Source: Podospora anserina (Eukaryota). From it: DNA of 64,000 bases. Both the position numbers and the translations under genes were made by a program. Location of the stretch: assembly GCA_017654855.1 (NCBI GenBank), contig CM030337.1, forward strand, positions 2,232,001 to 2,296,000. The letters run 5' to 3'. The first letter of the stretch is position 1. Each line of letters begins with the position of its first letter. Shown here piece after piece: positions 1-12,670 of this stretch. The notes beneath the pieces are model-generated. The model did not search any database, was not told where the DNA came from, and was given only the letters and a program-made list of their open reading frames with translations.

Positions 1-880
1 CAAGGGGCTTTCGGCTCCTGGGAACTAACACCTTTCTATTTGTTTGGATAAACTGAGTCCGATCCGTGGTAGCGAGCAAACCCAGTTCATATTGTAAGAT
101 AACGGGATTCGAACACGGTCGGTTTCTGAAAGGCTTTCTCAGGGCTTTCCTAGAGGAAACCCAGACACTCATCATGAGAGGAAATCCAGCAAGGATGACC
201 AAGGAGCCCGGAAAGGTATCGAATCTCTTGGTCACGGTCTGTTGAAGCATTCGTGCTTTCAATCTCATTCCGCTCAACGGTGGTGGCCCTAAAGATGTTG
301 TTTTAATCTTATCACAACTATCCTCCTTATATCCAGTCTGCAAAACAGAGGAGCGTTAGCATGGGTTATTTCAACTCATCCCTTCGGGATCTGCCAAGTG
401 ACTTGCAGAATGGCAATACTCAAAAAAGTCCTTCCTGGCCGTCCACTCCGCGAGGCTGACAGCTTTTCTACCATCTTCCATGGCGCGGATTGTTGACCAA
501 AGCGCTATGCAAGCGATGAGGAATCCTCCAAGTGCAAAGACCATGTTGCCACTTTTAGCGCAGCGTCTTCTATCCCGCTGTAGGACACAGGTCGAAAATT
601 GAAAATACCGAAACACGTTACAGACATATTTCGATTGTTTGACATAATGGAAGAGTGCTGAGGGTGATAGACAGGATGAGGCAGTACTGTGTTCCGATAC
701 GGTTGATATTCTGTCGAATGAGGTTGTAGCCGTTTGGGTTGGGGTCGGGGTTGTAATGGACGCAGATGGCGGGGGTGCCTGAAGTCCAGTCACCATCGGC
801 TGGACCACTTCTGGCATCCTCACTCCCTCACAACCTGATGCGATTGTTGCGGAGTATATAAAATGAGCGCTGGGCATAGA
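1..880 (-). CDS. TM/zinc-module family protein, paralogue 1 (3' end runs off the window; start uncertain)
   Basis: Exon 1 carries the hydrophobic motif FLIACIALWSTIRAMEDGRKAVSLAEWTARKDFFEYC. A predicted GC-AG intron at 406-338 (GCAAGT...GCTAAC...TTGCAG) follows. The next exon reads TGYKEDSCDKIKTTSLGPPP...LAGFP...ELGLLA, stays open to position 1 and aligns by eye with the paralogue at 52261-53901. Confidence 0.7.
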
Positions 881-1300
881 GAAAGTCGAGTTATTCAGCA
901 CGTTAACGAAGTCATCTGGCTCGAGGTGACATGCGGTTGCCTTGCTGGTGGCGGTGCATTTTTACAGCTTACCTGCATAACGTGCGCCTACCTAGGTAGG
1001 TACCTAAAGTGGCGTGGGGGCTTGATCCTTTTGTACGCCAAAAGCTCGGATAGGATACGTCTAAAGCTTAGATTATAAAGACTAAAAGTTTGGACATATA
1101 ACCTCCCGCATTGAACAAGCTATCGAGCTCATTCTATCCTATAGTCTGGCCGCTAAGGAGAAAGCCTGGCTCAGTTTCAAGCTCTGCTTCTGGCTCGGCT
1201 TGGAGCTCGGCTTGGATGTCTGCTTCTGCCCCCCGGCCTGTTTCTGTCTCTGTTCCGGTCCCGGCCTCTAGCTCTGTTCCTTGTTCTGTTCCTTGCTTGT

Positions 1301-3188
1301 TCATTGCTCTGTTTCTGCTCTGCTTCTGGCTCCCGCTGTTTCGGGTTTTGTTTTGACCTCTTCTTCAAGCTCTGCTTTAGGCTTGGTAAATAGACCCGAA
1401 TGGTGGCTAAATATAGAGCTGTAGGCAGTATCCAACACCCACCCGAATTCCTCCTGTTGATCTGTCATATGGTCCCTGACTCTGAACCGCTGGGCCTAGT
1501 GAGCCCTTCCCTCTTTCTCCACCCTCCTCCAGTAACACAGAATCCCACCAATCTCATCTATCCAAGGCTCAACCATGCGCTTTTTGGATACATCATCAGG
1601 ATAGGGCGGCCCCCCGTGCTTTTCATCACCATTGTAGACAAAGTACATCCGATAGAGGAGAGATTCGACAACTTGATTGAAGTTCCTTTGCCATGAGATC
1701 TGTGTCAGGACAGTGTCGACTTCACCACCATCATCTGTTGTTTCCGCATTGATTCTGAGAATATCATTGATATGTAGGACCATACCATGAGGAGGACTGT
1801 CTACGCGCTGGTGAGAAAGCCCATAAAGAGCTTCATCAATGCATGACAAGCACCAAGAAACAAAGTAACAATTATTGTGATCCCAGGGATGTTCTGGTGG
1901 CTCATCAAAACCTAATTTCAGTGTGGCCTTGCAGATACGACAAGAGAACCCCGGCAGAGGAGTTGATGCTTGGATTAACGGCAGGTCCGATGGCCAGATT
2001 GCCGCCGGGATTGACGGCAGAAGTCGTGGTCGAACAGGTGACGGAACTGAAGTTGGACTCTGTGAAGATAAGATTGACGACCCAGCCGGTAGTGAGCGGA
2101 AACGTATTTGAGCATCCGACTCTGTAGATATATTTTCCACCTGGTCTACCCTGTGGGTAGGATGTCCTTCTGATTCCACAGACTCCAGAGACAGTTTTGG
2201 TATGTCAGTGACGTAAAGATGTAACTGGTTCCGTTGACGTTTCCGGCCCCCCTCTCGTCTAGATACGTCGGCTTTTATGAGGGCCGAGGTCATTCCGGTG
2301 TCCATTCGGAGTAAAGGAAGAGTGGTTGCAGTGGGCTTGAAGTCAAAACTGGTTTCCAACCCACTGCCAAAAATCGCTCGGCGTGAAGTGCCTGTCATGG
2401 AAGAATGGTGAAAGTCAACACCCGAGCTGTTTGCTACTCCGGTGCCAGGTGACTGGGCAGGCAGGAGCTCTCCGGCTTCTCCAGCCAGTAGTCCATTTGT
2501 TGATTGTCTCCAAAGAACGTGTGTGGCGGTGGACCCAGGGGTGCTTTTGTTACTCTGTCACACCCGTCCTCCTGGTCTTCAATCTGTTTGAAGAATTAGC
2601 TTATGGTAACGACAAAGTGTGTCCTTGAAATTGACCTACTGTTTCACAGAACTCCCAGTAGTCTTTCCTAGCCGTCCACTCAGCTATTCTCACAGCCTTC
2701 CTACCATCCACCATAGCACCAATGGCTCACCATAAAGCCACACAAGCAATAATAAGTCCAGTTGTGGTAGTAAGAAGCTTACTTGCTTTGTTAACTGAGC
2801 CTCTGTACTTTCCCACAACGACCTTGGAGTTTTGAAAGAGGGCGTATCCTGCATCGGCTATACACCTACCCATGCTTGCTAACCTCGATCCGAAACTGTG
2901 AAAAAATAGATCAGGATGCGACTTTCTTTGAGGCGATGTTGCTGTCTTTGGCGGCCCTGGTCTTTGAGAAGCTCTAGATGGCAAAGGCTCGGATGCGGGG
3001 AGAGAGGAAACACAAGGGCTTGCGGCTGCTCCCTTCAACTGGTTAAGCTCCTGTTGCAAAACACTCGCCAGTCCAAAACCAGTTCCCAATTCGACGAAAT
3101 CTTTTATGAACATCTTGCAATCGGGAAGTTTGAGGCAACTAGTTGTTCGGCAGGCACAAGGGACTTGGGCAGCGTGGCTGTGCCACAT
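1301..3188 (-). pseudogene. TM/zinc-module family paralogue 2, disrupted
   Basis: Same motif, IIACVALW*AIGAMVDGRKAVRIAEWTARKDYWEFCET, with an in-frame TGA at 2729-2727. Intron 2639-2584 sits at the conserved position. A frameshift near 2500 precedes GLLA...FGSGLETSFDF...RKRQR (ORF 1496-2398). A TAG at 1498-1496 is followed by 64 further sense codons. Confidence 0.7.
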
Positions 3189-3289
3189 ATTGGCACAAGC
3201 CCACCATCACAGAGCTCGTGCATGAATGGCCCCGAAGCTCACGCTGCCATAGCAGGCCCGCTCGCTACACATTTGGTTGGTCCACATTC

Positions 3290-3370
3290 ACCCCTCACGT
3301 CACATCTCACCTCACCTTGACCCTTCACCTTCACCTCTCACCTTCACCTATCACTCACCACCCTCACCAC
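3290..3370. repeat. Low-complexity (CCTCA/CCTTCA)n tract at the 3' end of the TIM-like gene
   Basis: Imperfect repeats ctcacct/cttcacct are visible directly. Confidence 0.5.
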
Positions 3371-4238
3371 CACCCCCCGCAACCTCCCCAATCAACTTGA
3401 CAAACTCCCCAGCATCATGCCCAAACCTCCCCAAAAACAACCCATCCACCTCCCCCCCCAACCTCTCCCACAACCCCCGTCCCGCCGCCCCCCCATAAAT
3501 AACCCTCACCCTCTCCCCCCTTCCTTTCACCCCCTCCCACTCCCTCAACCCTCTCACAACCCCCTCAACATACTCCTCCCCAGCCGGCTCCCTCCCCCCG
3601 ATAGCCCAAACAGGCTCATAAGCCAGCACCACCTCCTCCCCCTCCCCAACCCCCTTTAGCACAACCTCAACCTGCCTCACCACCTCCCCAACCGCCCCTT
3701 CAATCCCCCCATCTTTCCTCATCTCACCAACACATATCACCGGAACCATCCCATTCCTCACCACCCCCCTAACCTTCTCCCCAACCCTCCCATCACTCTC
3801 CGCAAACAACCTCTTCCGTTCCGCATGCCCCAATTCCACAAACTCCACCCCAACCTCAGCCAAAACCGCAGGACTAACCTCCCCTGTATAAGCTCCAAAG
3901 TCCTCAGAGTAACAATCCTGCGCCCCTACTCTTATCCTTCTCGCCACCGACCCCTCAGGAGCAGATCGTATGATACTAATGACAGACGTGAGGGTGACAA
4001 AGTCGGGGATGATGAAGATGTCGACATCGTCATCACCCAGGGTTAGGGTATCCGTAGGGCTGGAAAGAAGCTCGACAACGGACCGGGTGAAGGCTTCCGT
4101 CCGGGAGGCGGAAAAATACATTTTGGTGGATACCCCGATCAGACGACGCCTTCTTCCTCGCTTGTTACTGCTATCAACCGGCGCCGTTGACGCCGCCGCC
4201 GTTGCTTCGGGGCCGGGAGAGGTGGGGTTGGCGGACAT
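3351..4238 (-). CDS. Triosephosphate isomerase-family protein, non-glycolytic subtype (tetrose-phosphate isomerase-like)
   Basis: TIM motifs GVSTKMY, GAQDC...GAYTGEVSP, GHAERK and AYEPVWAIG are present. Divergent YGGAAG and DGLFLGRF replace YGGSV/GFLVGGAS. Intronless, ATG at 4238. Confidence 0.88.
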   Translation of the reverse strand: MSANPTSPGPEATAAASTAPVDSSNKRGRRRRLIGVSTKMYFSASRTEAFTRSVVELLSSPTDTLTLGDDDVDIFIIPDFVTLTSVISIIRSAPEGSVARRIRVGAQDCYSEDFGAYTGEVSPAVLAEVGVEFVELGHAERKRLFAESDGRVGEKVRGVVRNGMVPVICVGEMRKDGGIEGAVGEVVRQVEVVLKGVGEGEEVVLAYEPVWAIGGREPAGEEYVEGVVRGLREWEGVKGRGERVRVIYGGAAGRGLWERLGGEVDGLFLGRFGHDAGEFVKLIGEVAGGGGEGGE

Positions 4239-4944
4239 CACTGAGGACAACAAACACGACCGAACAAAAAAGGGGTGTCCGATTTCGGTAGTCTAAAAGA
4301 TAAATGCTGTGTACACCAAAGTCTGGGTTACCGAGGAGATAACACTACATTTTAGTCAGTCCTCACCGTCACAAACAAACCGGATCATTCGCCCTGTCAT
4401 GACGCAGTCCATTTCATTCATTCACACACGGGAAAAGTCCCCCCCCACCCATCAAAGCAAGCAGCACTGTCGATCCCCGCGGCTCGGGAACTTTTTAGCT
4501 TAGTCCCATCCACCTGGTGCCACTGTAAAAACCCGCTGTAGCTCGTCCCACCAACGATTTACCCGCCCCCAGACATAGCGGGGGTCCCCATCTTGATATC
4601 CAATCAACGGGGTAACAATAGCAGCACCACAACAACAGCATGCTCCAAAACTCGCTGGAACTGGAGCTCCAACTGCCTGATAGGGTTCGCTGAGCCGACA
4701 AGTTCTTCTTGGCCCCCCCAGAATGTGGATAACCCGAACAATCAACAAAGTGGAAAAACGCAGGCAAAATGGAGCAAACTCGAAGCTTGTATTCCTCGCT
4801 GGATCCCACCACCCCAAGAAGATCTGTTCTGGACCAAAGTGGCGCCTTCAACACCAAACATCCTCGGATTACCCTTTTGGGAGCGCCACACTCACATGTA
4901 TCCTGTCTCGTCTCTTGGAATCCAACTCGCTATTCCCGCCCTCA

Positions 4945-5513
4945 TCAGCAACCCTTCACTTCCTCCGCCGCCCCAGAAAGACCATGTTCCCCTTCTTCGT
5001 ATTCATGAATGGCAGCCACCTTGGCAGCACTGGCGCTCTTCTCGTCAAAGACATATCCCAACCACTCCTTTGCGAGCCTCCTCGCAAGCTCCAGTCCCAC
5101 CACCCGCTCCCCCATGCACAACACCTGGGCATTGTTGCTGAGGACCGCTCTCTCGACCGAGAAGCTGTCGTGTGCGGTGACTGCCCTGATCCCCTTGATC
5201 TTATTGGCGGCAATGGCAACGCCGAGGCCAGTGCCGCAGATCAACAGAGCTCGGTCGACCTCTCCCGAGGCCACGAGTTTGGCCGCCGCCGCGGCGATGT
5301 GTGGGTATGCCGTCTTGTCCTCCTTGCCCGTGGCACCGACGTCGACGACTGAGATGACCCGGGGATCGGCCGCGAAGTCTTCTTTGATTTTGTTCTTGTA
5401 GCTCACGCCGGCGTCCTGTTTGTAAATCAAATCATTAGCCCGTGATATCAAATCTGTCCCAGGATTATACTCACATCGCAGCCAACGGCAATCTTCCACT
5501 GTGGTGAGCTCAT
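4945..5513 (-). CDS. Ribose-5-phosphate isomerase B (RpiB/LacAB family)
   Basis: Exon 1 [13 protein letters not shown], intron 5474-5416 (GTGAGT...CAG), exon 2 DAGVSYK...[20 protein letters not shown]...[15 protein letters not shown]. Confidence 0.92.
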
Positions 5514-6084
5514 GTTGAATGTGATGATGTTGCGATGTCGTTGACGAACTTCCAGACCAGCGGCTCCTTGCTGCTCGCCAAAGTAGTAATGTAATGTAGT
5601 CCCATAAAAACAACTTGACACTGCCTTCCCACTAGGGAACTCGGCAATCGCTATTTATCCAAGCCGCCTTTCCGTTCCGGGTATTCCGCCTGCGTCCTGG
5701 AAGCACCAGACTACCACCCGGTTCCAGGAGGCTGCATGGGGGGGAGGGGGAAGCCACTGCACGCTGCCCCTCTCCCCGTACGCCCCTAAACGCCCCGCAT
5801 ACCGGCAAGTGGCCCATCATGAGGCGATCATCGAGGGGGACATGTGTTACTCGCTCGGCAAGGTTCAAAGGGGGAGGGAGGGGGTGAATTATCCCGGTGG
5901 TGATTTCCATATCCGATCAGATGTGCAGGTTCTGGCTTCTGGACCGCATGCCGCGTCAGGCCTCCCCGGTGGTGTGTCCGGGAGTTGACTTGAAATATTG
6001 TGTCACTGGCTGTTGTTCGCTGCTCGACTTGGACTCACTCCCACTCCAACGTGAACTTTCACAAACCACATTCTGACAGCCAAC

Positions 6085-7866
6085 ATGTCCAAACGACACC
6101 TCTTTTCCTCACTCGAGGGGCTTGTCCCCAAGGCCCTTCGAGGCATTGTTGCCAGCAACCCAAGACTCAACCTCGACGAGACCAACCGCGTAGTCTTCGA
6201 CCCCGAATCCCCCAAGTCGATCGTCAGTATCATCAGCGGTGGCGGCTCCGGTCACGAGCCAGCATGGTCTGGCTATGTTGGCACCAACATGCTGGCCGCC
6301 GCCGTAGGCGGTGATGTCTTCGCCTCTCCAAGCACTAAACAGATCCTGGCTGCTGTCGAGGCCGTACCATCAGACAAGGGGACACTCCTGGTGATCACCA
6401 ACTACACCGGGGACTGCCTTCACTTCGGCCTGGCAGCCGAGAAGACAAAGGCAAAGGGGAACCCGTGTCGTATGCTCATCTGCGGCGACGATGTCTCGAT
6501 TGGAAAGCAGGGCTCACTAGTTGGTCGTCGAGGACTGGCTGCTCAAATAGGAGTGCTCAAGGTTCTCGGTGCTGCAGCTGCAGAGGGTCTCTCGCTGGGC
6601 GAGCTATTCGACCTCGGCACTGCCGTCAACGGCCAAATCGTCAGCATTGCCGCCACATTGGACCACTGCCATGTCCCCGGTCGAACAGAGCACGGTGCCC
6701 TTGACCCCGATGTGGTGGAGATTGGTACAGGACCACACAACGAACCCGGCTACAAGAAGCTCTCACCAGCTCCTTCAGCGGAAGGATTGGTGAAGGAGAT
6801 GCTCAGATACTGCCTGGACGAGACCGATCCTGTGAGAGGATACGTCAAGTTCAACCCCGGAGACGAGACGGTGCTGTTGGTCAGCAACTTCGGCGGCATG
6901 TCAAACCTGGAGATGGGAGGTCTTGTCGATGAGCTCCTTCAACAGCTCCTGGCCGACTGGAACATCGAGCCCGCGCGTGTGTACGCTGGCTCCATCGAGA
7001 CATCGCTCAACGCGCCCGCCTTCTCCGTTTCAGTCATCAACCTTTCAGGGGTAGCAGCGACCAGCCCCTATTCGCTCGACCAGATCAAAGGATTCTTCGA
7101 CCTTAAGACCGATACAGCATGGGAAGCTGTTGCTGGATCCCAGAGATACCGTCGTCCAAGAGCCGATCAGCTTGTTCAACCGCCAGTCGAAGAGCGTAAG
7201 GTCATTGATGAAGCGAGAGATATCAAGATTGACCCCGTGCTCCTGGAGAGAATGCTCCGCCGGGCCTGCAATGACCTCATCAAATCCGAACCAGACCTCA
7301 CACGGTGGGACACCATCATGGGAGACGGCGACTGTGGTTTGACACTCGAAACTGGTGCCAAGGCGTTGTTGGAGGCCATTGATGGGCCACACAAGATTGC
7401 TGCCAAGGGATCGGTAATCGAAGTTCTCACTGAGCTCGAGGAGATTCTTGAGGGCAAGATGGGAGGAACACTTGGTGGTATCCTGGGCATTTTCTTCGTG
7501 TCAATGAGAACCGCGCTGCAGGAGAACCTTGAATTAGCCAAGACAGAAGGTTTGGTATCGTTATGGTCAAAGGCCCTTTCACATGCCATCCATCATCTCG
7601 AGCAGTACACACCAGCCAAGGTTGGCGACCGAACTGTCATGGACACATTGATTCCGTTTGTCGAAGCTATGGCGGCGACCAAGAGTTTGGAGGAGGGTGT
7701 CGCTGCTGCGGTAGCGGGATCAGAGAACACCAAGAAGTTGAAGGCGAGATTGGGGAGAGCGACGTATGTTGGTACTGGGACAGACGGCAAGGAGCTGCCA
7801 CCAGATCCGGGTGCTTGGGGCGCGATGGTGGTGATTCAGGGACTGCTTGCTGCAATTTCAGAATAG
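6085..7866 (+). CDS. Dihydroxyacetone kinase family (Dak1+Dak2) sugar kinase
   Basis: Motifs SGGGSGHEP, NYTGD, GRRGLA, HNEPG, GDGDCG, MGGTLG, GDRTVMD, GRATY and DPGA; 593-aa intronless ORF. Confidence 0.93.
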   Translation: MSKRHLFSSLEGLVPKALRGIVASNPRLNLDETNRVVFDPESPKSIVSIISGGGSGHEPAWSGYVGTNMLAAAVGGDVFASPSTKQILAAVEAVPSDKGTLLVITNYTGDCLHFGLAAEKTKAKGNPCRMLICGDDVSIGKQGSLVGRRGLAAQIGVLKVLGAAAAEGLSLGELFDLGTAVNGQIVSIAATLDHCHVPGRTEHGALDPDVVEIGTGPHNEPGYKKLSPAPSAEGLVKEMLRYCLDETDPVRGYVKFNPGDETVLLVSNFGGMSNLEMGGLVDELLQQLLADWNIEPARVYAGSIETSLNAPAFSVSVINLSGVAATSPYSLDQIKGFFDLKTDTAWEAVAGSQRYRRPRADQLVQPPVEERKVIDEARDIKIDPVLLERMLRRACNDLIKSEPDLTRWDTIMGDGDCGLTLETGAKALLEAIDGPHKIAAKGSVIEVLTELEEILEGKMGGTLGGILGIFFVSMRTALQENLELAKTEGLVSLWSKALSHAIHHLEQYTPAKVGDRTVMDTLIPFVEAMAATKSLEEGVAAAVAGSENTKKLKARLGRATYVGTGTDGKELPPDPGAWGAMVVIQGLLAAISE

Positions 7867-8287
7867 GAAGCGATTGGGGATGAAGGGTTTGAATTTTCTC
7901 GTGGTTGGATTGATCAGATTTAGAGATCAGTAATTCGGAATAAATTTGGTTGTACTTTACTGTGAATTCATGGATTGTGTGTGGCTTGTATGTCCTGAGA
8001 CTTGGGCGCTCCTTCCTACTTCCTCCTCCAGGCACCCACACTCAACAAAGGGCTCTCTTCATTTGATCACCGAATCAACTGGAATCCGCGATGATGCCAA
8101 CGTCTTGATTACGTTTCCAGGATCCATGGGATCCAAATGAACTCCTGTGAGCTATTGAGCTTTTCAAAACCATACCCCGCATATAAACCGTCAAATAGCG
8201 AGGTGGTAGATAAAGGAGAAAGGATATCAATGCAGAAATACACATGATAATCGAATTCAACTATTCTAGGCAGGTCTAAGAGAATCC

Positions 8288-9157
8288 TCAAGCCTTCCCA
8301 GCACTCCCCAACCAATGCATATACCTCTCAATCGCCACCTGCATCGCCTCCGTCCCCTTCTCAATCACACTCGTCAACGGCTTCCCCCTCATCTTCTCCT
8401 GCGTCCACGCATAGTGATTATTCATCCCCTTGTTGATATTCACCTTCGTCACCCCCCCCGCCATGCACTTTCTAAAAATCTCCTCATCGAACGGATCAGC
8501 CCCATGCAGCACCAACCTGACCCTATCCCCGACCTTCTTGTTGATAGCATCAAGCCGGTCATACTCCAGCTGGATCCCCCTCGGTCCATACTCCCCATGC
8601 ACATTCCCAAACGCCGGCGCCAACATGTCAATCCCGGTGGCAACAAACTCCTCCGCTTCCTCGGGGGTAGTAAGCAGTCCCTCGAGGTCAGCAGTCTCAG
8701 CTACGCCGTCCTCGCCACCTTCGATACGCCCTGGCTCTGCCTCTGCGGCGATACCGCGCTCGTGGCAGTATTGAACCAGTTCGGCGGTGAGCTTGAGATT
8801 CTCCTCCTTTTCGTAGTGCGACATGTCGCACATGATGCTGTCAAAGGCGTCCGGGATGTCGGCTGCCCTGCGGACCAGCTCGGGTGTCTGGCAGTGGTCC
8901 AGGTGGAGGGAGACTGGGACCGAGGCCGAGTGAGCTGCCTCAGCGGCGGCTTTGACGAGAGCGTCACCGGCATATTGAATCGCCCACGGGAAGAGCAAGA
9001 CCATAGCTGGGGAGCGGGCGGCTTCGGCAGCTCTGACGGTGGCGATGATGGATTCGATGTTGTAGCAGCACATGGCTGGGACGGCGTACCCCCCAGCGAG
9101 GGCCTTGTTGAGAATGCTCATGGAGCGGTTCTCTGAAAGGGGGGGTCTAGGAGCCAT
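8288..9157 (-). CDS. Class II (metal-dependent) ketose-bisphosphate aldolase family protein
   Basis: Motifs HLDH, EAEPGRIEGGEDG, AFGNVHGEY, LVLHG and KVNIN; 289 aa. Confidence 0.92.
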   Translation of the reverse strand: MAPRPPLSENRSMSILNKALAGGYAVPAMCCYNIESIIATVRAAEAARSPAMVLLFPWAIQYAGDALVKAAAEAAHSASVPVSLHLDHCQTPELVRRAADIPDAFDSIMCDMSHYEKEENLKLTAELVQYCHERGIAAEAEPGRIEGGEDGVAETADLEGLLTTPEEAEEFVATGIDMLAPAFGNVHGEYGPRGIQLEYDRLDAINKKVGDRVRLVLHGADPFDEEIFRKCMAGGVTKVNINKGMNNHYAWTQEKMRGKPLTSVIEKGTEAMQVAIERYMHWLGSAGKA

Positions 9158-9518
9158 GGTGGGTGGTGGTGGGTTGACTGAGCTGTCAACGAATAGTGAT
9201 AGTGGTGATGGTGTTGAGTGAGTGACACAGTAAGTCTTGCCAAGACTGAGTGTGAGATGCTGTAAGTTCTCGACTTAATACCCCCCCTGGAAAGGCACTG
9301 GCTGAAAGCAGACTCACTCCTTTGCTCATCAATTCATCCTACGGGATATCATCGGCACCTCTTTCTCTGTCGTGCCCAGATAACCCGAGAGATTTGCCGC
9401 CCCCTCGGGTTCCTCAATACAGGAAGGTCGATGATTGACCTGCCAAGGCCGGCTGACGGGACCCGCGGTGATGCGCCGGTGCATGTAAGAATATTAGCCA
9501 AAATGCGGCAGTCCGCCT

Positions 9519-9668
9519 GCGGGGACAGGGAGTCACGTCATAATTAGTTCTGGAGGATTGAGGGGGTGAAATTGATGTTCAGAGTTGAGATGCAAAAGTT
9601 TACAAAGCGGGGAAGCTCGTTGGGACTGTGGGCTAAGAAGCGTGGGTCAGTGACCAACTCCCGCGGGG
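9519..9668. promoter_or_regulatory. Three CreA/CRE-1-type SYGGRG sites (GCGGGG) in the divergent aldolase/dehydrogenase promoter
   Basis: GCGGGG at 9519, 9607 and 9663. Further matches lie in the other cluster promoters at 4475, 4578 and 5793. Confidence 0.4.
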
Positions 9669-9971
9669 GACTTTGCGTGGGACTTGGACTTCATCCGGAC
9701 GGGTCTCGGCATAGCCCAGCGTGAGATGATATCCCAAGGGGCGACAAAATGATCAAAAAAAAAACATGTGTTTACGGGCAGGCCGGCTGGATTGCATGGC
9801 CGAGTGTCGGAGTTTCTGCTGTCGTGGTTTGCACTCAGCATCTTGACCACCCCCCTACTCATTGTTTCTCACTGATATTGCATGCAAAGTCTTGGCCGAG
9901 TTAGCAGTCACCAACACCAGTTAACCCCCCGAGTCCCTCAATTGTTGCACTTTGAACCAAACATCACCACC

Positions 9972-11288
9972 ATGGCCGACCAGAAACCACCTGTTGCCTT
10001 CATCGGGCTCGGAGCCATGGGCTTCGGCATGGCCACCCACCTCATCAAGCAAGGCTACCCAGTTACCGGATTTGATGTCTGGGCCCCAACTCTCAAACGG
10101 TTCGAGGAAGCAGGCGGCTCAACCGCCACAACACCAGCAGAAGCCGTCCTCAACAAGGAGCATGTCGTCGTAATGGTGGCCACCGCCCAGCAAGCCCAGA
10201 CTGTTCTGCTGGATGGCCCCAATGCTGCCGTCCCGAAGCTTCCCCAAGGAGCCGTGGTCCTTCTCTGCTCCACCGTCCCCTGTGACTACGTCCAGGCTCT
10301 CCAAGTCCAGCTCAACAGCATCGGCCGCAGTGACATCTTGCTGATCGACAGCCCAGTCTCCGGCGGAGCCGCCAGAGCAGCAGATGGCACTCTTTCCATC
10401 ATGGCAGGCATGTCTGCTGCTGCGTTGGAGAAAGGACGCCCGTTGCTCGCTGAGCTGTCAGATCCAGCAAAACTGTACATTGTCGAGGGTGGCATCGGTG
10501 CTGGCAGCAACATGAAGATGGTTCACCAAGTTCTCGCGGCAAACCAAATCCTGGGAGCAAGTGAGGTGATGGGTTTCGCTGAGAGACTAGGCCTAGATCT
10601 GGCCAAGGCTCAAAAAGCAGTGCTGGAGTCTGATGCTTGGAATTTCATGTTCGAGCACCGAACACCCAGAATATTCACCGAGTTCCAGCCTGTTGCCAGT
10701 GCGGTTCAGATTATCGTCAAGGATACCAGCATCATCACCTCAGAAGGGCGAAGAAGTTCTTTTGCCACGCCGATGACAAGCGCAGCGGAGCAGATCTACT
10801 TCACTGCTGTTGGGAGAGGGTGGGCGATGGACGACGATAGCAGTCTCGTGAGACTCTATACCGAAGGAAACGGAAAGGTTGGGCCAGTTTATGGCACTGC
10901 TGAGTCAGAGGAGGATAAGACGGCTTTGGTGTTGGCTTTGATGAGAGGTATCCTGCTTTGTGCTGCTGCAGAGTCTCTTGCTTTTGCGCACACTGTGAGT
11001 CTGGATTTGGATCAGGTCTTGGATCTTTGTGTCAACGCTGCTGGTGGTAGCAAAGTGCTGGAGAAGCTTGGGCCTGCCATTATCAAGGAGCTCGGGGGTG
11101 CCGGCGATGCTTCAAGTGGCGAGTCGAGCCTTGAGGATGTCTTTAGCGGACTGAGTGCGGCGGTCGAGGAGGCACAGAGGATAAAGACTCCGTTGTATCT
11201 TGGGACCCAGGCGTTGAGTATTCTCCAACGTGTGACACAATCCAAAGGGACAGGCTCTGCTGGTGTTGTCGTCAAGGCGTGGGTTTGA
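9972..11288 (+). CDS. 3-hydroxyisobutyrate/6-PGDH-family NAD(P)-dependent dehydrogenase, L-threonate dehydrogenase (LtnD/YgbJ)-like, with a duplicated C-terminal helical domain
   Basis: Motifs FIGLGAMGFGMA, DSPVSGGAARAADGTLSIM, GSNMKMVHQVLA, FMFEHR and SAVQIIVKD. A second AAAESLAFA...LDLDQV helical repeat follows. Kozak-like CACCATG at 9972. Confidence 0.88.
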   Translation: MADQKPPVAFIGLGAMGFGMATHLIKQGYPVTGFDVWAPTLKRFEEAGGSTATTPAEAVLNKEHVVVMVATAQQAQTVLLDGPNAAVPKLPQGAVVLLCSTVPCDYVQALQVQLNSIGRSDILLIDSPVSGGAARAADGTLSIMAGMSAAALEKGRPLLAELSDPAKLYIVEGGIGAGSNMKMVHQVLAANQILGASEVMGFAERLGLDLAKAQKAVLESDAWNFMFEHRTPRIFTEFQPVASAVQIIVKDTSIITSEGRRSSFATPMTSAAEQIYFTAVGRGWAMDDDSSLVRLYTEGNGKVGPVYGTAESEEDKTALVLALMRGILLCAAAESLAFAHTVSLDLDQVLDLCVNAAGGSKVLEKLGPAIIKELGGAGDASSGESSLEDVFSGLSAAVEEAQRIKTPLYLGTQALSILQRVTQSKGTGSAGVVVKAWV

Positions 11289-11579
11289 GATATTGATAGA
11301 GGTAGATAGGTATCTTTTAATGTTTGTCCTTGTTTTTGGGTATGCGTCTAGGGTGTCGTTTGCAGATAGAGATTAAAAATGTCACCGAATTTGCTGGATA
11401 CTATTCCGCCAGAAGGCTACTCACCCCACCAACAAAACAAACCCGCCTGCCCCACTTTATACTGCTCAATTCCAATCCCTGCTCCTAGTCGCGTCTTCTC
11501 ATCGCAACACGCGTCTCATGATCAAATATCACCCAGAGCATCATCAACCCCAGTCGAACAACCTCACCAACTACCCAAA

Positions 11580-12670
11580 ATGGAGGAGGCAATGAAACAG
11601 CACTTTTTCCACCACGGAAAACCAGACGTAAGCTCACGTTATCCCCTCAATCTCTCACATCATGTCCCTCTCATTGACCACTTCCCCAGACCGACCCCTC
11701 AGAAGCCGAAAAATGCCACTGGTGCCAGATTCGTAGTTTCAAAACCCACAAGAAACTTCCCATCACCATCGTCAACGAAGCCAAAGGAGACGAACGCAAG
11801 GAAGTCCTAAATCCAGACTTCAAATTCATCGACCACTCAATCCCAAGCGACGACGTCCCCATCGCCGGGGCCTCCTTCCGCACCGGCTGCAATTGCGCAG
11901 ACGACGAGCAGTGCATGTACTCAACATGCGAATGCCTCGACGAAATGGCCCCCGACTCCGACGAGGACATGTCCGACGCCCCCCCAGCTCGTGGCCGCAG
12001 GATACAAAAGTTCCAGTACTACCACTCCGGCACCAAAGCCGGCTTGCTCAAGTCTAGAATCCTCGACAGCCGTGAGCCAATCTACGAGTGTCACGATGGC
12101 TGCAGTTGCAGTAAAAACTGTCCGAACCGGGTGGTGGAACGAGGCAGGACGGTGCCGTTGCAGATCTTCCGGACAAAGAATAGAGGATGGGGGGTCAAGT
12201 GTCCGGTGGATATCAAGAAGGGGCAGTTTGTGGATAAGTACTTGGGGGAGATCATCACCAGCGAGGAGGCCAACCGCCGGCGAGCTGAGTCGACCGTCTC
12301 GGATAAGAAGGACGTTTATTTGTTTGCTTTGGACAAATTTTCTGACCCGGATTCACCTGACCCGTTGTTGAGGGCGCCGCCGTTCGAGGTGGATGGGGAG
12401 TGGATGAGTGGGCCGACGAGGTTTATCAACCACAGTTGCGACCCAAATATGCGGATTTTTGCTAGGGTGGGGGATGCGGTGGATAAGCATGTTCACGATT
12501 TGGCGCTGTTTGCCATCAGAGATATACCGGCGGGAGAGGAGTTGACGTTTGACTATGTGGATGGCGGGTTGGCGGAGGAGGACGCCGGGGGATTGGTACC
12601 GGATGACAAGAAGAAGGATATGACGAAGTGTTTGTGTGGGACGAAGAAGTGTAGGGGGTTCTTATGGTGA
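11580..12670 (+). CDS. dim-5: Histone H3K9 methyltransferase DIM-5/KMT1
   Basis: Exon 1 MEEAMKQHFFHHGKPD, intron 11628-11689, pre-SET Cys clusters, SET motifs RFINHSCDPN and ELTFDY, post-SET CLCGTKKCRGFLW; collinear with recalled Neurospora DIM-5. Confidence 0.97.

Follow-up and report, generated by a model that had tools for sequence, protein, structure and literature searches.

A five-gene cluster in Podospora anserina that may carry sugar acids to erythrose-4-phosphate

What do five contiguous genes, of kinds commonly annotated as extra copies of central sugar enzymes, do together in a wood- and dung-rotting fungus? In the window, the 64,000-nucleotide stretch of Podospora anserina DNA analysed here, they appear to make up a single pathway that has been overlooked and that plant hemicellulose induces, by which oxidised sugars probably enter central metabolism via a four-carbon intermediate.

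Gene models and conserved order

An ORF and domain scan of the window finds all five reading frames intact where they had been predicted, arranged as two divergent gene pairs with the TIM gene behind RpiB. On the minus strand lie a TIM-family isomerase of the LerI/EryH/EYI2 type (3351..4238; 295 aa; PF00121) and, in two exons, an RpiB-family isomerase of the DerI/EYI1 type (join(4945-5415,5475-5513); 169 aa; PF02502), which is paired with a plus-strand DAK-family kinase carrying Dak1 and Dak2 (6085..7866; 593 aa; PF02733+PF02734). The second pair comprises a class II aldolase-fold enzyme (8288..9157, minus strand; 289 aa; PF01116, F_bP_aldolase) and an LtnD-like beta-hydroxyacid dehydrogenase with NAD_binding_2 and two NAD_binding_11 stretches (9972..11288, plus strand). 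For the dehydrogenase, 9972 is a likelier start than 9882, because orthologues begin there; the protein then has 438 aa. The original prediction allowed a single intron, in RpiB. That predicted 59-nt GT-AG intron (5416..5474, minus strand) is indeed spliced in 3/3 presumed-RNA runs and unspliced in a DNA-like run, but a 58-nt intron with GT-AG ends also lies in the aldolase 5' UTR (9260..9317, minus strand), its joint present in all three presumed-RNA runs.

The clustering of the five genes is not due to chance. Synteny bears out the predicted grouping: of 80 metagenome loci centred on the aldolase, 5 show all five genes in identical order and orientation, and the aldolases of these 5 form 3 distinct groups at 95% identity. 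Many loci in this sample are too short for neighbours to appear. A DAK gene lies near the aldolase in 9/80 of these loci and an LtnD-like dehydrogenase in 25/80 (17/51 groups). Among the named species common to both match lists, aldolase and DAK fall on same-sized contigs in 17 of 18 (counted by eye), and their locus tags are adjacent wherever given. The N. crassa counterparts NCU10106, NCU10107, NCU04400, NCU04401 and NCU10110 match in enzyme types, order, shared promoters and the dim-5 neighbour; the passages and tables consulted on N. crassa do not join them into a pathway but place them separately, as paralogues in glycolysis, the pentose phosphate pathway and glycerol metabolism.

The TIM-like, RpiB and DAK enzymes

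The TIM-like enzyme scores 172 bits against PF00121 and falls under every TPI equivalog cut-off. It is 32% identical to TpiA, lies outside the TpiA clade in our tree, and carries the motifs GVSTKMY and DGLFLGRF of bacterial DAK-RpiB-TIM operons, where TpiA has GNWKLN and DGALVGGAS. RpiB scores above the cut-off of TIGR02133 and reaches 138 bits against NF051858 (DerI), versus 106 against the RpiB model; it is 63-68% identical to actinobacterial operon enzymes, groups with DerI-type enzymes, and retains Cys73 with Ser106 in place of the ring-opening His. By family, the TIM-like enzyme is predicted to convert L-erythrulose-1-P to D-erythrulose-4-P, and RpiB would take the latter to erythrose-4-P. 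Structural-genomics proteins of Coccidioides immitis are the best PDB matches of the TIM (3s6d), RpiB (3qd5/3sdw/3sgw) and the aldolase (3pm6, TM 0.91), and shorter substrates were suspected for RpiB alone.

These observations agree with the original prediction that the genes are not glycolytic duplicates, and the TIM and RpiB phylogenies point the same way. The current annotation, which makes them redundant isoenzymes of glycolysis, the pentose phosphate pathway and glycerol metabolism that raise pentose flux, is highly improbable. It has on its side a 2026 N. crassa sugar model, which lists tpi-2, rpi-1, fba-2, a second DAK and hpd-3; against it stand the TIM and aldolase scores under the TPI and FBA cut-offs, the lost RpiB His together with the crystallographers' suspicion, and housekeeping copies that are already strongly expressed, N. 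crassa having separate constitutive, highly expressed TPI, FBA and DAK genes.

The DAK matches TIGR02361 at 692 bits, above its cut-off, and is thus of the eukaryotic type; since it is only 25-28% identical to bacterial operon kinases, its predicted likeness to LerK/DerK holds as an analogy of role and fails as close kinship. The motif GTGPHNEPG is found in 120/120 closest homologues, where PDB 26vk has GMGIHNEPG. This DAK is a second, non-housekeeping fungal paralogue and, by analogy, a putative erythrulose kinase.

Taken together, and again by analogy, the three enzymes very probably form the predicted funnel from erythrulose to erythrose-4-phosphate. They match the bacterial funnel and EYI2, EYI1 and EYK1 of the Yarrowia lipolytica erythritol cluster (EUF1, EYI2, EYK1, EYI1, EYD1), which likewise clusters TIM-like, DAK and RpiB genes and has a promoter common to EYK1 and EYI1, as DAK and RpiB do here; this likeness is drawn by enzyme family and gene layout. 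The trio was already characterised in Yarrowia, and of the poorly characterised fungal pathway first proposed it is the five-gene whole that seems to have been overlooked. Unlike the Yarrowia cluster, the one described here adds the LtnD-like and aldolase-fold enzymes, neither an erythritol dehydrogenase nor a Euf1-like regulator is among the ORFs scanned, and XLR-1 regulates the N. crassa counterpart. The recorded inducer is xylan, via XLR-1, and not a tetritol.

The dehydrogenase and aldolase-fold pair

The dehydrogenase combines a Rossmann fold with two helical domains, and its best NCBIfam match is NF043037 (261 bits; cut-off 350). In the tree it nests, on a long stem, with domain 1 of fungal DH-DH-DUF1537 fusions, and its substrate-side motifs read SAVQIIVKD and relatives versus SAVDIFVKD. 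From these features we infer an aldonate dehydrogenase. The closest fold to its model is YgbJ (3g0o), and the model also aligns over its full length to long-chain 6-phosphogluconate dehydrogenase (TM 0.72-0.74). Such a match, with the published ready decarboxylation of 3-oxo acids, could mean that the dehydrogenase alone oxidises a pentonate at C3 and decarboxylates it to erythrulose, the aldolase being otherwise employed. We consider this very unlikely, since identity to 6-phosphogluconate dehydrogenase is just 17-19%, YgbJ/LtnD is nearest by both fold and sequence, and the promoter common with the aldolase would be unexplained.

The aldolase-fold enzyme falls under every NCBIfam aldolase cut-off despite its PF01116 match and is 25% identical to FbaA. 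Its zinc/metal site is intact (D87, H88, H187 and H218), and D221 and K243 occupy the positions of KbaY S211 and T233, which we take to be the phosphate-binding site; a literature search found no paper for that role, which counts against a sugar-acid reading. The pattern HG-ADP/NK occurs in 116/120 homologues and 23/25 dehydrogenase-linked loci, whereas plant LTD reads HG-ASG in 33/33 and NT in 31/33, and Ser/Thr plus Thr are retained in 6/6 bacterial references. These residues suggest a 2-oxo-aldonate decarboxylase or aldolase.

The same pairing of LtnD-type dehydrogenase and F_bP_aldolase fold is known from the three-step L-threonate pathway (LtnD, 2-OtnK, 2-OtnC), whose decarboxylase 2-OtnC has the aldolase fold, and from Arabidopsis LTD (AT1G18270), which joins both domains to a DUF1537 kinase in one protein and is needed for L-threonate turnover. 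In those systems the route ends at DHAP, whereas the window pair is joined to the erythrulose funnel, has the presumed phosphate-site residues replaced, and is accompanied by no DUF1537 gene in the window or in the 80 loci. The pair looks like a kinase-less offshoot of the L-threonate route, and we count the missing kinase and the residue changes in favour of unphosphorylated sugar acids; the tree counts against, as it groups the aldolase neither with plant LTD nor with an Arthrobacter 2-OtnC-like protein.

The replaced residues also bear on ketose-1-phosphate cleavage, in which DAK would add a C1 phosphate to D-xylulose or erythrulose, the aldolase would release DHAP and glycolaldehyde or formaldehyde, and the dehydrogenase would remove the aldehyde. 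Class II aldolases are usually paired with a kinase, xylan induction is consistent with this reading, and a lichen preprint cites a proposed cleavage of erythrulose-phosphate to DHAP and formaldehyde in Lipomyces. This reading is nevertheless quite unlikely: the DHAP phosphate-site Ser/Thr is replaced across the whole fungal clade, the aldolase accompanies acid dehydrogenases more often than DAK (25/80 versus 9/80), and N. crassa lacking xylulokinase fails to grow on xylose.

We further note that four unrelated kinds of 2-hydroxy-acid dehydrogenase adjoin fungal relatives of the aldolase. Where an LtnD-like gene is absent (55 loci), the aldolase lies in 8 cases near a DenD-like (NF043036, 322.8 bits; cut-off 325), FMN-dependent or D-2-hydroxyacid dehydrogenase, and three of these eight also contain an anion:cation-type transporter or a lactonase. 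This company argues for a sugar acid as entry substrate, as does the dehydrogenase/aldolase pair itself. On the other side, no alternative dehydrogenase is seen in the other 47/55 loci (28/55 have <2.5 kb upstream), and the P. anserina cluster contains no transporter or lactonase.

Xylan induction and a candidate sugar-acid route

Co-induction of the five genes, as predicted, is evident in N. crassa, where published data show all five counterparts to be XLR-1-bound and xylan-induced. In the published tables they are near-silent on sucrose, with a median FPKM of 1, and rise to 40-228 on xylan, where they stand 8-72-fold over the xlr-1 deletion. One XLR-1 peak is common to NCU04400 and NCU10107, another (rows 3-4, xylan sheet) lies in the interval matching the aldolase/dehydrogenase promoter, and peak spacing is 4.25/5.77 kb versus 3.77/4.97 kb between the window promoters. 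The shared RpiB/DAK promoter carries an XLR-1-type site, GGATAAA (GGNTAAA; 5654..5660, minus strand), in the same column of 4/4 promoters aligned, a fifth (L010) being too long to align; the shared aldolase/dehydrogenase promoter carries an XlnR/XLR-1-type GGCTAA (9494..9499, minus strand) in a column invariant in 7/7. Both the N. crassa response and the conserved footprints favour the sugar-acid reading. Against it, the window aldolase promoter lacks a strict GGNTAAA (it reads GGCTAAT), constitutive XLR-1 significantly raised just 2/5 genes (aldolase and dehydrogenase), starvation partly derepresses all five, and NCU10106 also belongs to the rhamnose/PDR-1 regulon.

The set of genes and its conservation, the altered residues and the promoter footprints lead us to propose, tentatively, a single hemicellulose-induced side pathway from sugar acids to erythrose-4-phosphate. 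Entry of a sugar acid through the pair is in itself rather probable; that a pentonate is the main substrate is plausible but short of probable. The LtnD-like enzyme would oxidise an aldonate of L-threonate configuration at C2/C3 to a 2-oxo acid; D-xylonate and/or L-arabinonate, which share the C2(R),C3(S) configuration of L-threonate, are the likeliest substrates. In the least certain step, the zinc aldolase-fold enzyme would act on the unphosphorylated 2-oxo acid, with loss of CO2 yielding erythrulose, either by a 2-OtnC-like enediolate shift and decarboxylation or by retro-aldol cleavage to hydroxypyruvate and glycolaldehyde, which transketolase would join to L-erythrulose. By analogy to EYK1/LerK, DAK would phosphorylate erythrulose, and the TIM-like enzyme and RpiB, by family and analogy, would deliver erythrose-4-phosphate to the pentose phosphate pathway.

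This logic has bacterial parallels. The D-ribonate route (Rib2D, OrnI, DerK, DerI) also leads from a C5 acid through CO2 loss, erythrulose, a DAK-family kinase and isomerases to erythrose-4-phosphate, as does, in outline, apionate route 3 (ApnO, OiaC, LerK, EryH, EryI); here the place of the bacterial isomerase or decarboxylase of the AP-endonuclease-2 family is taken by an aldolase-fold protein, the kinase is eukaryotic-type and a permease is absent. The closest plasmid-borne RpiB (68%) sits in a Streptomyces operon with an isomerase, DAK, GntP permease and LtnD-like dehydrogenase, a layout corresponding to a D-ribonate-to-erythrulose route and counted in favour of our model. Apiose or apionate catabolism, with the dehydrogenase and aldolase in place of ApnO and OiaC yielding L-erythrulose for LerK-, LerI- and DerI-like steps, would give all five genes a role; apionate operons of Erwinia (L083) and Rhizobium (L084, oiaX) do include bacterial TIM and RpiB relatives, and NCU10106 lies within the pectin/rhamnose regulon. 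It is unlikely, however, as ApnO is KARI-like and of a different family from the LtnD-like window enzyme, recorded induction is by xylan via XLR-1, and a literature search turned up no paper describing an apiose pathway in fungi.

The most serious competitor, though doubtful, is a pair of co-regulated C4 salvage modules with one common kinase, in which the dehydrogenase and aldolase make dihydroxyacetone and CO2 from L-threonate (or D-erythronate), the trio salvages, as its Yarrowia counterpart does, erythrulose formed from erythritol or threitol, and XLR-1 control reflects four-carbon overflow in pentose growth. The dehydrogenase derives from an LTD-type fusion, L-threonate is the substrate of the members characterised so far, Yarrowia uses the same trio for erythritol, and DenD-like neighbours indicate tetronates. 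Moreover, the pair occurs without the trio in 16/25 dehydrogenase-linked loci, several too short to tell, so the modules can exist separately. What this leaves unexplained is their stable merger into one cluster; the lack of an erythritol dehydrogenase in the cluster and the scanned ORFs, the LtnD-like dehydrogenase's long stem and changed motifs, and an XLR-1 response strongest in the pair also speak against it, xylan presumably being no obvious threonate source. The full set of five genes is better accounted for by a C5 acid than by the C4 entry compounds originally proposed.

Evidence on the pentonate itself is divided. PMC12994016 ties xylonate use through such a route to LerI/DerI, and in Myceliophthora thermophila, a relative with a xylose dehydrogenase of its own, xylonate is produced but does not accumulate. 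Bacterial Ltn2D, on the other hand, is strictly L-threonate-specific, simple decarboxylation of D-xylonate would give D-erythrulose and leave the TIM-like enzyme unneeded, and M. thermophila extracts formed no NADH from 10 mM D-xylonate, although Arabidopsis LTD, too, escaped detection in an assay of this kind. Deletion of the M. thermophila xylose reductase raised the aldolase model ~2.3-fold and the dehydrogenase model ~3.1-fold, a response confounded by starvation. Growth data from N. crassa count against the model: xylose does not support the xylulokinase deletion, so any bypass carries too little flux, and the NCU10107 deletion still reached 0.54-0.62 of its glucose biomass (n=3) versus 0.67-1.18 for wild type (n=18), with other deletions in that growth sheet about as low.

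Gene order and conservation of the cluster

The original prediction described the arrangement correctly, and all five open reading frames were found intact, namely a TIM-like isomerase (3351-4238, minus strand), an RpiB-type isomerase (4945-5513, minus), a DAK-family kinase (6085-7866, plus), a class II aldolase-fold enzyme (8288-9157, minus) and an LtnD-like dehydrogenase (9972-11288, plus). The accompanying claim that only RpiB has an intron is right about the RpiB intron, which is spliced, but misses a second intron in the 5′ UTR of the aldolase gene. Both introns are seen in contigs of three runs that we presume to be RNA, none of which carries RNA in its record; neither splice is visible in a DNA-like run. 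Next to the cluster lie beta-COP and a gene with a SET domain, which in Neurospora is dim-5, and the best named match of the aldolase is in Triangularia setosa (98%).

A synteny survey, one of the checks proposed with the original prediction, shows that the same five-gene order recurs in L002-L005 and L010, out of 80 metagenome loci centred on the aldolase. The dehydrogenase adjoins the aldolase in 25 of the 80, and DAK, RpiB and TIM are found in nine, six and five, respectively. With the aldolases grouped at 95% identity, the dehydrogenase is present in 17 out of 51 groups and DAK in six. Aldolase and DAK also lie on equal-sized contigs in 17 of the 18 named species found in both match lists, which belong to the Sordariales, Xylariales and other groups. 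These locus and species counts show a widespread dehydrogenase/aldolase pair that is joined to the DAK/RpiB/TIM trio in many Sordariomycetes.

We further note that RpiB, a 706-bp gap and TIM lie on the same strand under single contigs in all three presumed-RNA runs (3450-5602), a possible common or read-through transcript. Some 290 bp separate the end of the dehydrogenase from the dim-5-like SET gene, which has the same orientation (11288-12670), and contigs cross this gap in 3/3 presumed-RNA runs, so that transcription of an inducible metabolic gene may continue into a gene for a histone methyltransferase. Ten database proteins (P0121-P0130) are dehydrogenase-SET fusions, which we reject as real proteins and regard as probable gene-calling artefacts.

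The two isomerases and the kinase

The TIM-like protein had been predicted not to be a housekeeping enzyme, and it indeed falls in a clade apart from TpiA (SH-aLRT 99), scores below all TPI cut-offs and carries the motifs STKMY (GVSTKMY) and LGRF (DGLFLGRF), where housekeeping enzymes are recognised by NWK and GGAS. In the tree it groups with the TIMs of bacterial DAK-RpiB-TIM operons, in an actinobacterial/enteric subgroup outside the rhizobial LerI clade. It shares with LerI, EryH and EYI2 the fold, the catalytic Lys, His and Glu (K39, H138 and E208), the replacement of GGAS by GR and the DAK/RpiB context; its GRF is common to the operon TIMs, while PDB 11ef and the LerI of R. etli read GRS. 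Family and context point to a putative L-erythrulose-1-phosphate isomerase.

The RpiB protein likewise has the fold, the catalytic C73 and the Ser in place of the ring-opening His that mark DerI, EryI and EYI1, and it reads SNNAQ like R. etli DerI, compared with HND in E. coli RpiB. Its exon 2 scores 138 bits on the rhizobial DerI family NF051858, below the cut-off of 240, as does an RpiB-type enzyme of an Arthrobacter operon (143.5), and its identity to actinobacterial enzymes is 63-68%. On the same grounds of family and context it would be a putative D-erythrulose-4-phosphate isomerase. The authors of the crystal structure of the Coccidioides orthologue suspected that its substrates are shorter, noted a separate RpiA and discussed the His-to-Ser exchange (PMC3212906).

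The kinase scores 376 bits on the bacterial subfamily PRK14479, whose cut-off is 492, exceeds the cut-off of the eukaryotic-type TIGR02361 and is 25-28% identical to the bacterial operon kinases; the subfamily motif GTGPHNEPG occurs in 120/120 DAK homologues. One database protein, P0293, is a Dak2-TIM fusion. The relationships of RpiB and TIM, taken like those of the dehydrogenase and the aldolase from quick SH-aLRT trees with long branches, suggest horizontal transfer, and GC3 gives no sign of a recent one.

Yarrowia has these three enzyme types in one erythritol-induced cluster, and strains deleted for EYI1 use erythritol poorly (PMC5992420, PMC10935855). Yarrowia EYK1 agrees with the window DAK in family and promoter-sharing. 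Judged by sequence family and context, the TIM/RpiB/DAK module would thus be of the same kind as the erythrulose funnels of Yarrowia and bacteria. Even this weaker reading would show which genes of filamentous fungi correspond to those for erythritol in Yarrowia. A lichen preprint describes fungal erythritol catabolism as not fully understood (10.64898/2026.07.28.741190).

Among the bacterial operons compared, we read L081 as tetritol-type, L083 and L084 as apionate operons and L086 as ribonate-like; L087 is a DAK-RpiB-MFS-TIM stretch and L085 an unrelated context. The unannotated Streptomyces operon L082 (9083-15833) holds an AP-endonuclease-2 isomerase, DAK, RpiB, GntP permease, LtnD-like dehydrogenase and GntR, and is probably a pentonate pathway.

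The dehydrogenase and the aldolase-fold enzyme

LtnD family NF043037 is the best-scoring family for the dehydrogenase, at 261 bits against a cut-off of 350; an Arthrobacter dehydrogenase of the three-step type scores 244. The LtnD catalytic motifs (Lys, K-x-x-H/N-Q and MFE-x-R) are present, with KMVHQ and MFEHR kept, and the GVH and DIF positions are altered. Its longer relatives comprise DH-DH-DUF1537 fusions in fungi and, in plants, proteins of the layout DH-DH-DUF1537-aldolase. Within the group of first fusion domains (SH-aLRT 99) the window dehydrogenase forms its own clade on a long stem (100). Locus L008 was left out of the dehydrogenase alignment for a stop at codon 412. The third, helical domain is kept, and the overall shape resembles that of long-chain 6-phosphogluconate dehydrogenase. 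Neither the window nor the 80 loci contain a DUF1537 kinase (2-OtnK), of which a copy elsewhere in the genome is possible. The Penicillium protein P0196 has the three-domain layout of the window dehydrogenase and is still fused to DUF1537. An Arthrobacter operon (L094, 3949-8882) with DUF1537 kinase, LtnD, GntP and F_bP_aldolase looks like a three-step threonate route.

The aldolase-fold enzyme is not a housekeeping FBA, in line with the expectation that the cluster holds no glycolytic duplicates: it scores 71 bits against a class IIA cut-off of 348 and is 25% identical to FbaA. It keeps the metal ligands D87, H88, H187 and H218, and has D221 and K243 at the positions of S211 and T233 in KbaY, Ser/Thr positions that we take to bind the phosphate of DHAP. 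Nearly all members of the dehydrogenase-linked clade have this change, which is seen neither in plant LTD (the L-threonate enzyme with dehydrogenase, DUF1537 and aldolase domains) nor in six bacterial references. The fold and metal ligands agree with the aldolase domains of 2-OtnC and LTD, but HGASG and N-x-N-T are missing; the window enzyme has HGADP and NINK and lies outside the LTD group in the tree. We infer that the fungal aldolase family takes 2-oxo sugar acids in unphosphorylated form, with DAK acting afterwards. DAK is placed after the aldolase by the order in apionate route 3, where LerK follows OiaC, and in the ribonate route, where DerK is likewise late (PMC13753588). PMC8532513 and PMC3123459 yielded no assignment of function.

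Eight of the 55 loci that lack an LtnD-like gene have another 2-hydroxy-acid dehydrogenase near the aldolase (DenD-like in four and FMN-dependent in four, one locus having both, and D-specific in one, which also has a lactonase), according to tblastn searches of the full set of 80 loci and to Pfam scans that covered 20 plus 104 ORFs from a chosen subset. The aldolases beside them fall in sister subgroups with other motifs. In L049, L056, L058 and L071 a fungal DenD-like D-erythronate dehydrogenase stands beside a paralogous aldolase, with an anion:cation-type transporter in two and a fungal transcription factor in one, making these loci a candidate separate fungal erythronate cluster. A prokaryote scan that requires the exact fungal aldolase motifs returned 148 stretches, three of them relatives, with identities of 27-29% for two and 62% for the third, and gave no close bacterial source. 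The 62% match comes from a cyanobacterial genome bin, of Stigonema (L095, 1,036 bases for 258 residues), and its contig is probably a contaminant of fungal origin.

Probable XLR-1 control and a candidate oxidative pentose route

Predicted XLR-1/XlnR-type GGNTAA(A) sites are conserved in 7/7 and 4/4 aligned promoters, as an invariant GGCTAA (9494-9499) and as GGATAAA (5654-5660), respectively. At least one GGCTAA is found in 9/9 promoters of the closest loci, which are related to each other and for which shuffles predict 0.3-0.7 per region, and in 3/7 distant ones. Neither an XLR-1 nor a PDR-1 site is conserved in the TIM promoter. Further conserved blocks in 9158-9971 and 5514-6084, namely CCAAT then TGACGT, GGAACCCGA, GCCGA..CCGGNTGAA and CGGAATAC..GGAAA, the last directly upstream of GGATAAA, may bind a second, pathway-specific regulator.

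The evidence on XLR-1 binding and induction comes from the N. crassa counterparts, which were mapped by annotation, by the order of the genes and their position next to dim-5, by the spacing of the peaks and by the N. tetrasperma locus tags 121214/121216, and of which NCU04400 is a second DAK (PMC13158570). There an XLR-1 binding peak near the top of the list (xylan sheet, rows 3-4; MACS 2879) is common to the aldolase NCU04401 and the dehydrogenase NCU10110, with another common to NCU04400 and the RpiB gene NCU10107 and one at the TIM gene NCU10106 (PMC4620465); their spacing resembles that of the window promoters. The anticipated co-induction is borne out in these counterparts, whose median FPKM is 1 on sucrose versus 40-228 on xylan, and all five are 8-72-fold lower in columns taken as the xlr-1 deletion on xylan, with one replicate high (PMC4620465). 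Constitutive XLR-1 gives a significant rise for aldolase and dehydrogenase alone (PMC4620465). NCU10106 and NCU10107 have been placed among xylose genes (PMC3948607), and NCU10106 in the PDR-1 core regulon (PMC5469009).

An LtnD-type dehydrogenase would oxidise a five-carbon acid of L-threonate configuration, which D-xylonate and L-arabinonate fit. A five-carbon acid best explains the combination of an LtnD-type enzyme, xylan control and a position upstream of the erythrulose funnel. Failure to grow on xylonate has been linked to missing LerI/DerI (PMC12994016), and M. thermophila, which has aldolase and dehydrogenase orthologues, makes xylonate by a native dehydrogenase without accumulating it (PMC9869559). 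The original prediction of four-carbon substrates survives as a strong rival, in which the cluster would comprise two salvage modules for tetronates and tetritols; bacterial Ltn2D is threonate-specific (PMC12994016) and xylonate yielded no NADH with M. thermophila extracts (PMC9869559), both of which speak against pentonates. We tentatively propose, giving it appreciable but minority credence, an unrecognised XLR-1-run oxidative pentose route in filamentous ascomycetes that takes D-xylonate/L-arabinonate to erythrose-4-phosphate and CO2 through a novel aldolase-fold activity without a phosphate site, decarboxylating or cleaving free 2-oxo sugar acids, and that was built by combining a dehydrogenase of the LTD type, now truncated, with a recruited eukaryotic DAK and two probably actinobacterial isomerases. 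Two findings count against this pentose route: xylulokinase deletion leaves no growth on xylose, and strains without RpiB show a modest defect at best (68% of the wild-type ratio with n=3, which may be a batch effect). This weak phenotype and the counter-evidence make the route at most a side or salvage branch. An NCU10107 deletion strain exists (PMC13158570).

In the open-access literature we found no paper treating the five genes as one filamentous-fungal pathway; a 2026 metabolic model distributes them over glycolysis, the pentose phosphate pathway and glycerol as redundant core enzymes (PMC13158570). Each module has a known relative, and the union, kinase swap, altered aldolase and XLR-1 link appear not to have been combined before. 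If true, the pentose route would give a destination to xylonate from fungal xylose dehydrogenase, whose role has been called unclear (PMC9869559), and a carbon-loss or salvage branch bearing on fungal engineering for xylonate, erythritol and xylose use. Three Coccidioides structures that are still orphans would also receive functions, and class II aldolases would gain a new reaction type.

Left of the cluster (371-3206) lie three or four ORFs without a Pfam match, partly alike by eye, which may represent lineage-specific repeats or a fast-evolving family. The Pfam-matched ORFs in 14094-63998 are of housekeeping types only: a ubiquitin-binding protein, beta-COP, a Vid24-like protein, a methyltransferase, Rpp40, an ankyrin protein, a tRNA ligase, a glycosyltransferase of family 3, a proteasome ATPase and a Bud3-like RhoGEF.
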